This document shows positions 8,342 to 40,782 of a stretch of 64,000 bases of DNA, one piece after another. The stretch is from Escherichia coli. GTDB taxonomy: Bacteria > Pseudomonadota > Gammaproteobacteria > Enterobacterales > Enterobacteriaceae. The notes under the pieces are model-generated. The model had not been told where the DNA came from. It did no database searches and saw nothing but the letters and a program-made list of their open reading frames with translations. The position numbers were made by a program, and so were the translations under genes. The DNA is taken from the NCBI RefSeq assembly GCF_003334305.1, contig NZ_QOWS01000004.1; one strand, 5' to 3'. How positions within the stretch are numbered: position 1 is the stretch's first letter; each line of letters starts with the position of its first letter.

Positions 8342-8414
8342 CGGACGTCTTGTCGAGTAGCAATCGGCTTTTTATGACGCTGGTTTCAGATTGGTGACAA
8401 AGTGCCTGTGTTTA

Positions 8415-8450
8415 TGCCGGATGCGGCGTTAACGCCTTATCCGGCCTACA
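8415..8450. repeat. REP (repetitive extragenic palindrome) unit
   Basis: gccggatgcggcgttaacgccttatccggcctaca is a near-consensus E. coli REP palindrome, lying in the barA/gudD convergent spacer. Confidence 0.8.
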
Positions 8451-8535
8451 AAACCAATTAAATTCAATGAATTAAAAAATGATGTAGACCTGATACATAG
8501 CACAACAGGCTATTTTGCGTTTAGCATCAGTCTCA

Positions 8536-8567
8536 AGCCGGCTCCAGATAGAGCCGGTTTTGGTTTT
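8536..8567 (+). terminator. Rho-independent terminator (plus-strand orientation, downstream of barA)
   Basis: GC stem gccggctc / gagccggt with a 6-nt loop, followed by TTTTGGTTTT on the plus strand. Confidence 0.6.
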
Positions 8568-14683: not shown

Positions 14684-15052
14684 AATAAAAAAAGGGAGCA
14701 CTGTATTCACAGCGCTCCCGGTTCGTTTCGCAGCATTCCAGCTACTTTTGTTGCTCCCTGCTCATCCTTGACAACTTTTCCTCTGGCCTTGCGGCCAATC
14801 GTTCATCCTGAACTATTGCTTCCTGCTCACACCACCCCGATGTGATACTTCATCCTGAAGTGTCCCTGGCCTTCCTGACCCACCGAATCATCCTGACCGG
14901 TTCTCATTCTCCATCCTGGAGGTGTCCTTTAACGCGTCCTGCGTCATCCTCTTCGCTTCATCCAGAAGCCTTTCCCTGAAACACCATCCTGGTGTGTCCT
15001 GCAGAAGTGTCATCATCCTGATGTTCACTTCGTTGTCTGACTCCCTGTCGAC
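14684..15052 (-). ncRNA. csrB: CsrB small RNA (CsrA-sequestering sRNA)
   Basis: No long ORF. The plus strand carries at least 8 exact CATCCTG heptamers (CAGGATG on the minus strand) plus about 10 further TCCTG/GGA variants spaced ~15-25 nt apart. Minus-strand 5' end GTCGACAGGGAGTCAGACAACGAAG; 3' end is a GC hairpin (gggagcactgtattcacagcgctccc) followed by a U-run. Confidence 0.93.
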
Positions 15053-22339: not shown

Positions 22340-22345
22340 CGGCGA

Positions 22346-22374
22346 GCCGGATACGCCGCAAACGTCGTATCCGG
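22346..22374. repeat. REP-like palindromic unit
   Basis: gccggatacgccgcaaacgtcgtatccggc is an imperfect palindrome of REP type in the xni/fucO convergent spacer. Confidence 0.6.
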
Positions 22375-22393
22375 CATTATCACATCAGCGCAT

Positions 22394-27907: not shown

Positions 27908-27977
27908 ATGCCCGGTCGCTCCGGCTACCGGGCCTGAACAAGCAAGAGTGGTTAGCCGGATAAGCAATGTTATCCGG
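27908..27977. repeat. REP/BIME-like palindromic units in the fucI-fucK spacer
   Basis: gcccggtcgctccggctaccgggc and gccggataagcaatgttatccggc are two GC-rich imperfect palindromes resembling REP units. Confidence 0.6.
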
Positions 27978-27996
27978 CTATATTGCAGGAGCGATT

Positions 27997-29415
27997 ATGA
28001 AACAAGAAGTTATCCTGGTACTCGACTGTGGCGCGACCAATGTCAGGGCCATCGCGGTTAATCGGCAGGGAAAAATTGTTGCCCGCGCCTCAACGCCTAA
28101 TGCCAGCGATATCGCGATGGAAAACAACACCTGGCACCAGTGGTCTTTAGACGCCATTTTGCAACGCTTTGCTGATTGCTGTCGGCAAATCAATAGTGAA
28201 CTGACTGAATGCCACATCCGCGGTATCGCCGTCACCACCTTTGGTGTGGATGGCGCTCTGGTAGATAAGCAAGGCAATCTGCTCTATCCGATCATTAGCT
28301 GGAAATGTCCGCGAACAGCAGCGGTTATGGACAATATTGAACAGTTGATCTCCGCACAGCGGTTGCAGGCTATTTCTGGCGTCGGAGCCTTTAGTTTCAA
28401 TACGTTATATAAGTTGGTGTGGTTGAAAGAAAATCATCCACAACTGCTGGAACGCGCGCACGCCTGGCTCTTTATTTCGTCGCTGATTAACCACCGTTTA
28501 ACCGGCGAATTCACTACTGATATCACGATGGCCGGAACCAGCCAGATGCTGGATATCCAGCAACGCGATTTCAGTCCGCAAATTTTACAAGCCACCGGTA
28601 TTCCACGCCGACTCTTCCCTCGTCTGGTGGAAGCGGGTGAACAGATTGGTACGCTACAGAACAGCGCCGCAGCAATGCTCGGCTTACCCGTTGGCATACC
28701 GGTGATTTCCGCAGGTCACGATACCCAGTTCGCCCTTTTTGGCGCTGGTGCCGACCAAAATGAACCCGTGCTCTCTTCCGGTACATGGGAAATTTTAATG
28801 GTCCGTAGCGCCCAGGTTGATACTTCGCTGTTAAGTCAGTACGCCGGTTCCACCTGCGAACTGGATAGCCAGGCAGGGTTGTATAACCCAGGTATGCAAT
28901 GGCTGGCATCCGGCGTGCTGGAATGGGTGAGAAAACTGTTCTGGACGGCTGAAACACCCTGGCAAATGTTGATTGAAGAAGCTCGTCTGATCGCGCCTGG
29001 CGCGGATGGCGTAAAAATGCAGTGTGATTTATTGTCGTGTCAGAACGCTGGCTGGCAAGGAGTGACGCTTAATACCACGCGGGGGCATTTCTATCGCGCG
29101 GCGCTGGAAGGGTTAACTGCGCAATTACAGCGCAATCTACAGATGCTGGAAAAAATCGGGCACTTTAAGGCCTCTGAATTATTGTTAGTCGGTGGAGGAA
29201 GTCGCAACACATTGTGGAATCAGATTAAAGCCAATATGCTTGATATTCCGGTAAAAGTTCTCGACGACGCCGAAACGACCGTCGCAGGAGCTGCGCTGTT
29301 CGGTTGGTATGGCGTAGGGGAGTTTAACAGCCCGGAAGAAGCCCGCGCACAGATTCATTATCAGTACCGTTATTTCTACCCGCAAACTGAACCTGAATTT
29401 ATAGAGGAAGTGTGA
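27997..29415 (+). CDS. fucK: L-fuculokinase
   Basis: The ORF track begins at 27967 inside the REP region; the preferred start is the ATG at 27997 ([26 protein letters not shown]...), preceded by the RBS gcaggag. FGGY kinase family. Confidence 0.93.
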
Positions 29416-33224: not shown

Positions 33225-33430
33225 ACTTCCTGAGCCGGAACGAAAAGTTTTATCGGAATGCGTGTTCTGGTGAACTTTTGGCTTACGGTTGTGATGTTGT
33301 GTTGTTGTGTTTGCAATTGGTCTGCGATTCAGACCATGGTAGCAAAGCTACCTTTTTTCACTTCCTGTACATTTACCCTGTCTGTCCATAGTGATTAATG
33401 TAGCACCGCCTAATTGCGGTGCTTTTTTTT
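33225..33430 (+). ncRNA. gcvB: GcvB small regulatory RNA
   Basis: No ORF. Begins ACTTCCTGAGCCGGAACG, carries the GU-rich seed tract GTTGTGATGTTGTGTTGTTGTGTTTGC, and ends in the intrinsic terminator gcaccgcctaattgcggtgc + T8. It is divergent from gcvA, the canonical arrangement. Confidence 0.93.
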
Positions 33431-35514: not shown

Positions 35515-35526
35515 GCACAGAACCAG

Positions 35527-35556
35527 GTCGGATAAGACGTTCGCGTCGCATCCGAC
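35527..35556. repeat. REP-like palindromic unit
   Basis: gtcggataagacgttcgcgtcgcatccgac is an imperfect palindrome in the csdE/tcdA convergent spacer. Confidence 0.6.
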
Positions 35557-35564
35557 CTGATTGT

Positions 35565-36371: not shown

Positions 36372-36447
36372 AGCACCTCAGAATTAAAAAGGGTGAGGTT
36401 ATCCCTCACCCTGGCGTATCCGTAAAAACGGTATACAGAATAACACA

Positions 36448-37753: not shown

Positions 37754-37830
<77 letters not shown>

Positions 37831-40733: not shown

Positions 40734-40774
40734 GTCGGATGCGACATGCGTAACACTCGTACGTCGCATCCGGC
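40734..40774. repeat. REP-like palindromic unit
   Basis: cggatgcgacatgcgtaacactcgtacgtcgcatccggc contains the inverted repeats cggatgcgac / gtcgcatccg, in the argA/recD convergent spacer. Confidence 0.6.
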
Positions 40775-40782
40775 AATTACGT

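Follow-up and report, generated by a model that had tools for sequence, protein, structure and literature searches.

What kind of element is the GC-rich palindrome at positions 8415-8450 of this DNA, and do the similar palindromes at other gene junctions nearby share its origin? The window, a 64,000-nt stretch of the Escherichia coli chromosome analysed at its full length, runs from mazG to lplT and is colinear with K-12 from mazG through recD and on to lplT. REPs are short, nonautonomous palindromes associated with the REP transposase TnpAREP (RAYT) and are defined by a GTAG head and a stem mismatch, both of which TnpAREP requires for binding and cleavage (Ton-Hoang et al. 2012, PMC3333891). 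K-12 contains 697 palindromic units, and approximately 60% of its REP elements lie between convergent genes (Harris et al. 2026 preprint). A preliminary description of the window had reported palindromes of REP type at barA/gudD, xni/fucO, fucI-fucK, csdE/tcdA and argA/recD, and all five were recovered there. All are intergenic, with lengths of 35 nt (barA/gudD), 30 nt (xni/fucO), 29 nt (fucI-fucK, with a core of only 24 nt), 30-37 nt (csdE/tcdA) and 42 nt (argA/recD), and they fold far beyond shuffled sequences (z -4.2 to -6.6; -3.2 to -6.6 for all hairpins examined). The reading we consider very probable is that the element at 8415-8449 is a standard Z-class REP and the other four are older members of its family, decayed to differing degrees, which fold as RNA hairpins on transcripts.

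Existing annotation contributes little to this question. An Rfam scan of the window returned CsrB, GcvB and one tRNA only, and the REP family is absent from that database. In the RefSeq record of K-12, REPs are left unannotated even at RIP1, where one is well known, so their absence from that record is uninformative. Of the small RNA genes, csrB lies at 14684-15043 and gcvB at 33225-33430, and the window has one initiator tRNA-Met gene (37754-37830) compared to three tandem copies in K-12 (metZ, metW, metV).

The barA/gudD element and the neighboring terminator

The barA/gudD spacer contains two distinct palindromic features:

8415-8449, minus strand: single Z-class REP with a GTAG head at 8449-8446, a 7+4 bp stem, an AA/GC bubble, loop TTAA and a tail A
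8535-8566: non-REP hairpin with a T-run, arms AAGCCGGCTC / GAGCCGGTTT, fold z -3.8

Positions 8415-8450 read TGCCGGATGCGGCGTTAACGCCTTATCCGGCCTACA (GTAGGCCGGATAAGGCGTTAACGCCGCATCCGGCA on the minus strand). The element is part of the barA 3' untranslated region (UTR), where it follows the stop codon by 73 nt and precedes the terminator; as RNA it folds at -21.3 kcal/mol (z -5.2). It is a canonical, full-length, single Z-class REP (palindromic unit) of an already catalogued kind. Its loop, TTAAC, is one base off both z1 (TTCAC) and z2 (TTTAC), so no subclass can be assigned. The GTAG tetranucleotide is found in this copy only, the corresponding positions being CCAG at csdE/tcdA, TAAT at xni/fucO and GTTA at fucI-fucK (CTGA in its partner), with none at argA/recD. 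The two-base stem bubble (AA opposite GC) occurs here and at csdE/tcdA and is closed or absent at xni/fucO, fucI-fucK and argA/recD. By analogy with characterized REPs, we predict that the barA/gudD copy alone would qualify for binding and cleavage by TnpAREP.

The preliminary description had REPs marking convergent gene junctions. At barA/gudD the REP does not mark the point of termination, as the bidirectional terminator mapped for this junction is a hairpin of its own at 8535-8560. Table 16 of Harris et al. 2026 derives from Ju et al. 2019; among its entries available to us, the one directly ahead of row 230 gives a K-12 overlapping bidirectional termination site for gudD:gudP:gudX:barA with no REP label, and its stem, CUCAAACCGGCUC, matches the window hairpin. 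The hairpin at 8535-8566 is the bidirectional terminator of this junction and the constant part of the spacer.

Strain variation at this and the other sites was surveyed with queries of approximately 100 nt, centered on each element, against 5426 complete E. coli genomes. The barA/gudD region of the window is identical in strain E2865 and many others, and the element was found at its own locus in 5210/5426 genomes (96%); the REP block is missing or replaced in approximately 4%. This query matched a median of three near-identical places per genome, compared to the own locus only for the decayed copies. Three alleles of the spacer (window 8342-8534) were identified: the REP block, a G-rich palindromic block in Z142-7 whose repeat (...CCCCTCCGGGGAGAGGGTTAGGGTGAGGGG...) is distinct from REP, and, in R32_14_1F, a minimal spacer of 57 nt. 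All three keep the terminator hairpin downstream, with some sequence differences (non-REP alleles examined: Z142-7 and R32_14_1F). The barA/gudD REP has the look of a passenger that the barA 3' UTR can do without.

Consensus scores and allelic comparisons at the weaker palindromes

To set the remaining palindromes against the family, REPs were drawn from 250 kb of K-12, in chromosome parts outside the window region. There, nhmmer with the barA/gudD copy as seed harvested 51 REPs of this dispersed, high-copy family, representing 30 distinct sequences (28 retrieved automatically and two by hand) and including y-type, z-type, short araD-araA-type and GTC...GAC compensated variants. Covariance model R1 was built from 29 aligned independent K-12 REPs, with a 7+4 bp stem and a two-base bubble, and the window was scanned with filters off; an nhmmer profile provided a second scan. 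Within the K-12 sample, training REPs score 43-60 bits under R1 and degenerate copies 22-38 bits, and at approximately 15 bits remnants are mixed with chance matches, as shown by a 15.3-bit match inside the fdhF coding sequence. R1 scores of 14-17 bits are therefore a twilight zone. Across the 64 kb, R1 reached E <0.05 only at four intergenic palindromes, which fill five rows because xni/fucO scores on both strands:

barA/gudD, 8415-8449, minus strand: R1 60.3 bits, E 1.4e-17, model positions 1-35; nhmmer 41.3 bits, E 6.8e-12
csdE/tcdA, 35527-35556, plus strand: R1 40.2 bits, E 6.6e-11, body only; nhmmer 33.5 bits
xni/fucO, 22346-22375, both strands: R1 17.2 bits, E ~0.003; nhmmer 11.9 bits
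fucI-fucK, 27951-27979, plus strand: R1 14.3 bits, E ~0.03; nhmmer 4.9 bits
argA/recD, 40734-40775: no R1 match; nhmmer 13.2 bits, E 0.004, 3' arm only

On consensus alone, two sites pass (barA/gudD and csdE/tcdA) and the other three are undecided: xni/fucO and fucI-fucK fall in the twilight zone and argA/recD is missed by the covariance model. Three of the five palindromes lack GTAG and/or the mismatch and also score no higher than approximately 17 bits under R1, if it detects them at all. The three borderline sites are rescued because good REPs occupy the same loci in other strains or genera. The elements outside the fuc operon are as follows:

22346-22375 (xni/fucO): decayed REP without GTAG, bubble closed, one stem mismatch
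35524-35560, plus strand (csdE/tcdA): REP of the GTC...GAC compensated subtype, AA/GC bubble intact, head CCAG instead of GTAG
40734-40775 (argA/recD): REP-derived hairpin, both arms of 'GCATCC' type, 12-bp stem with one G-U pair, 17-nt loop

The csdE/tcdA copy, which occupies a 50-nt spacer, folds at -24.3 kcal/mol (z -5.9) and was found at its own locus in 5011/5426 genomes (92%), is a clear REP whose sole loss is the GTAG head. Beyond tcdA, the tcdA-mltA spacer (window 36393-36412) is an empty site where K-12 has a 162-nt REP pair, composed of an inverted y REP (38.1 bits), a linker and a z1 REP (59.6 bits). This K-12 insert has on each side a copy of GTGAGGTTATCCCTCACCCT, a 20-mer that is a hairpin in its own right, and the filled form occurs in 2755/5426 genomes.

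The xni/fucO palindrome begins 6 nt past the xni stop codon, fills its 54-nt spacer and was found in 4352/5426 genomes (80%). In YSP8-1, the same junction contains 50 extra bases with a palindrome of 37.8 bits (R1). In the O157:H7 strain SS NE 1040-1, the palindrome is cleanly deleted (equivalent to window 22345-22390), leaving 8 nt between the convergent stop codons; other O157:H7 strains retain it. Entry 230 of the available part of Table 16 (Harris et al. 2026) names the K-12 hairpin REP203, a mapped overlapping bidirectional termination site, and the REP203 sequence is identical to that of the window. Judging from these alleles and the shared arms, the xni/fucO palindrome is probably best described as a REP remnant minus its head and stem bubble.

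The argA/recD hairpin, which fills a 61-nt spacer, has the strongest fold relative to shuffles (-27.5 kcal/mol; z -6.6) and was found in 77% of the 5426 genomes. It is likewise identical to a named K-12 element, REP207, given as a mapped overlapping bidirectional termination site in entry 233 of the same part of Table 16. In CT282, the argA/recD spacer extends to 237 nt and contains three REPs, one canonical and of z type (55.2 bits), the others y-like and degenerate (20.7 and 18.0 bits); the canonical copy is flanked by a tandem duplication that covers a y-like REP together with approximately 90 nt from the 3' end of argA. The window hairpin looks like one of the degenerate y-like REPs of CT282 less approximately 20 inner bases, and would retain REP arm sequences only. 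Membership of the long CT282 palindrome in another repeat family (e.g., boxC) was considered and rejected, as nhmmer matched y-type REPs only. As at tcdA/mltA, the CT282 insertion is bracketed by duplicated hairpin-containing sequence. The REP203-207 numbers fit five K-12 elements in order, since K-12 also has the tcdA/mltA pair; from order alone, REP204-206 would be the fucI-fucK, csdE/tcdA and tcdA/mltA elements.

An alternative hypothesis takes the four weaker palindromes for ordinary terminator hairpins, each specific to its locus, whose GC-rich stems, starting with GCCGGAT, resemble REPs by chance. Such an origin would explain the low or missing R1 scores (17.2 bits, 14.3 bits or none), the absence of GTAG, the single copy number at megablast level and the similar-scoring chance match in fdhF. 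It is at odds with the 40-bit score at csdE/tcdA, the REP203 and REP207 labels in Table 16, the good REPs that other strains and genera have in the same places, and an IS1397 insertion in the fucI-fucK hairpin (see below). The allelic and orthologous sequence comparisons largely refute chance resemblance, which we regard as highly improbable. The strain comparison envisaged in the preliminary description showed filled, empty or replaced alleles at several junctions and, in other strains, good REPs at xni/fucO and argA/recD. The term 'REP type' stands for all five in the sense of membership in or descent from the family, although only the barA/gudD copy is complete, with both GTAG and the stem mismatch.

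The assertion that REPs mark most convergent junctions needs a similar adjustment. The window has eight such junctions (barA/gudD, xni/fucO, fucR/rlmM, gcvB/ygdI, csdE/tcdA, tRNA/amiC, argA/recD and tas/lplT), and REP-derived hairpins are found at four of them, or at 4/6 if protein genes only are counted. The latter share does not significantly exceed the genome-wide figure of approximately 35% (binomial P ~0.12; our arithmetic from the 207 K-12 convergent gene pairs with REPs and 383 without in Harris et al. 2026). The other four junctions have non-REP hairpins; that of fucR/rlmM appears in the available part of Table 16 as a terminator without a REP label. The gcvB terminator also serves the gcvB/ygdI junction.

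If transcribed, each element would fold, within a 3' UTR or between two cistrons, into a stable hairpin rich in GC. At xni/fucO and argA/recD, the hairpins coincide with overlapping bidirectional transcript ends mapped by others in K-12. As in studied REPs, such hairpins would partly stop transcription and block 3'-to-5' exonucleases, raising the upstream message relative to the downstream one. We infer that the worn-down copies act mainly as RNA hairpins at gene ends, a role mapped by others at those two sites.

The hairpins could also act on translation. REPs near stop codons are reportedly linked to ribosome stalling and tmRNA tagging (work ascribed to Liang, Rudd and Deutscher in 2015). 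By analogy, a REP hairpin within approximately 15 nt of a stop codon would stall the terminating ribosome, leading to tmRNA tagging and less upstream protein. The short gaps between stop codon and stem after xni (6 nt), csdE (9 nt), tcdA (4-5 nt), argA (12 nt) and recD (8 nt) are compatible with this effect, but it is inapplicable to barA (73 nt) or fucI (21 nt), and we consider it unlikely. A role at the DNA level seems more doubtful still. Convergent junctions accumulate positive supercoils, which counts in favor of a part in shaping supercoiling between convergent units through the binding of DNA gyrase, IHF, HU or DNA polymerase I. All four proteins are reported to bind REPs or BIMEs (background in PMC1525189), but the elements in the window are single or decayed and not tandem BIME-2 arrays, and no chromosome-compaction role was found for REP325 (Harris et al. 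2026). We judge this explanation very improbable.

The fucI-fucK spacer

The preliminary description had noted one palindrome between fucI and fucK. A second one, at 27910-27933, completes a pair:

27910-27937, plus strand: hairpin 1, decayed inverted REP, GCCCGGTCGCTCCGGCTACCGGGC followed by CTGA (CTAC in relatives), -18.9 kcal/mol, z -3.2
27951-27980, plus strand (palindrome 27955-27978): hairpin 2, decayed REP with head GTTA (GTAG in relatives), fold z -4.6

The two hairpins lie head to head across a 13-nt linker, the arrangement of a BIME, and the whole spacer folds at -46.4 kcal/mol (z -4.6). The stem of hairpin 2 is a perfect 9 bp (GCCGGATAA/TTATCCGGC), or 11 bp counting the flanking TA pair, and ends 6 nt ahead of the fucK Shine-Dalgarno sequence (27987-27991; fucK ATG at 27997). 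Its loop contains an in-frame ATG (27967-27969) that the open reading frame lister took as the fucK start (482 amino acids); the annotated start at 27997 (472 amino acids) has AGGAG 6 nt upstream.

A cross-genus scan of species-representative genomes with FucI yielded 25 Enterobacterales loci. Hairpin 1 corresponds, column for column, to GCCCGGTGGCGCAAGCTTACCGGGCCTAC from Klebsiella and Citrobacter. A strong head-to-head REP pair, with 37-46 bits for each half, is found at the same position in Citrobacter youngae and Citrobacter sp. Cu233, and pairs with a weaker partner (15-19 bits) occur in C. werkmanii (49.6 bits), Klebsiella spallanzanii (30.3 bits) and Salmonella arizonae (20.5 bits); over Klebsiella and Salmonella as a whole, the partner half ranges from 12 to 19 bits. 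Elements at the position of hairpin 2 score 20-50 bits across Citrobacter, Klebsiella and Salmonella, and the pair is best preserved in Citrobacter. In Escherichia, hairpin 2 reads TTATCC where relatives have CCATCC, so that the bubble is closed into the perfect 9-bp stem and the inner stem is lost. The outer stem of the fucI-fucK hairpins does not vary, and their inner parts resist alignment between REP classes. On this comparative evidence, the spacer appears to be a fossil head-to-head REP pair (BIME) with both heads mutated, orthologous to the pairs in related genera. In BH100, IS1397 (IS3 family) lies in hairpin 2, at the boundary of loop and 3' arm (~window 27966-27970), with a 4-bp GTTA duplication, and puts approximately 1.4 kb between fucI and fucK; this element is documented to insert specifically into REPs (PMC1525189).

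Two loci from the scan deserve mention in their own right. In a contig labelled Serratia marcescens, the fuc locus shows 93% FucI identity and has a REP pair of Klebsiella/Citrobacter type; the label may be in error, or the region may have been transferred. The Citrobacter sp. MGH106 spacer has no REP pair and contains a long AT-rich palindrome (GCAGGACAAAAA...TTTTTGTCCTGC) within a larger inverted repeat, which may be a different small mobile element.

A role of the hairpins in the fucI/fucK mRNA is plausible by analogy with studied REPs and finds some indirect support; it would favor fucI over fucK through the upstream-over-downstream effect proposed above. Uninduced RNA-seq base means per nucleotide are 0.17 for fucP, 0.97 for fucI, 0.61 for fucK, 0.66 for fucU and 0.58 for fucR. 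Folding and expression data fit a protective, attenuating hairpin after fucI, short of proof; an internal promoter could also cause this pattern, which comes from uninduced base means with no replicate analysis. Genes with and without REPs show no general difference in mRNA half-life (Harris et al. 2026), so any stabilizing effect would be context-dependent.

All of these elements might instead be selfish or neutral DNA fossils with no selected role, whose effects on transcripts are incidental. Polymorphism for presence, absence or replacement at barA/gudD, xni/fucO, argA/recD and tcdA/mltA would be expected of such fossils, as would the decay of the GTAG head and bubble, and the lack of a general half-life effect points the same way. 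At fucI-fucK, however, pairing in hairpin 2 was kept and even improved after the REP features were lost, as the change from CC to TT closes the bubble, and the element was found in 5423/5426 genomes (99.9%). A hairpin after fucI also recurs in Enterobacterales with unrelated sequences, and at xni/fucO and argA/recD the transcripts of the junction have been mapped to end at the element itself. We regard pure neutrality as rather unlikely.

For fucI-fucK, we tentatively suggest domestication, a possibility that we hold with less than even confidence. The pair would have inserted before the split of Escherichia, Citrobacter, Klebsiella and Salmonella, after which the transposase features were lost and the hairpins were kept and tightened for the fucI:fucK message ratio; more distant Enterobacterales would use unrelated hairpins in the same place. 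Across the 25 Enterobacterales loci, 21 spacers fold at z <= -2 (against mononucleotide shuffles), a count that includes hairpins unrelated to REPs.

Relation to known repeats and intercistronic hairpins

By descent, all five elements are correctly called REPs, with a single complete one among them, and this is established biology that is already known. Among E. coli repeats, REPs are the best known, and names already exist for at least two of the copies (REP203 and REP207), so the significance extends little beyond correct annotation. Within those bounds, the five sites clearly grade from a complete REP down to a plain hairpin, several junctions exist as filled, empty or replaced alleles among the 5426 genomes, and the fucI-fucK spacer may exemplify a mobile palindrome kept as an intercistronic RNA hairpin.

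Compared to the E. coli REP classes y, z1 and z2 (Bachellier et al.; PMC3333891), the element at 8415-8449 shares the 35-nt length, GTAG, the AA/GC bubble, the extragenic site and the tail A. The csdE/tcdA copy shares body and bubble, and the xni/fucO, fucI-fucK and argA/recD copies share arm sequences. In contrast to those classes, four copies are without GTAG and three of these are also without the bubble. With respect to overlapping bidirectional terminators (Ju et al. 2019), xni/fucO and argA/recD are listed in the available part of the table, where the barA/gudD entry is the non-REP hairpin and the csdE/tcdA REP does not appear.

Like the BIME of Citrobacter youngae and C. werkmanii, the E. 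coli fucI-fucK pair has the same position and order (inverted REP, ~13-nt linker, REP) and aligns column for column. Unlike it, the E. coli and E. albertii pairs have mutated heads (CTGA and GTTA), and the second unit has lost its inner stem and closed its bubble. The intercistronic REP hairpins of malE-malF and hisJ-hisQ cause a partial stop of transcription and a block on 3'-to-5' exonucleases, and like the fucI-fucK pair they lie between co-transcribed genes. REP325 of the yjdM-yjdN operon, a dual terminator and stabilizer (Harris et al. 2026), shares this setting. It is a tandem array of REP pairs, whereas fucI-fucK, known here from sequence, has one decayed pair.
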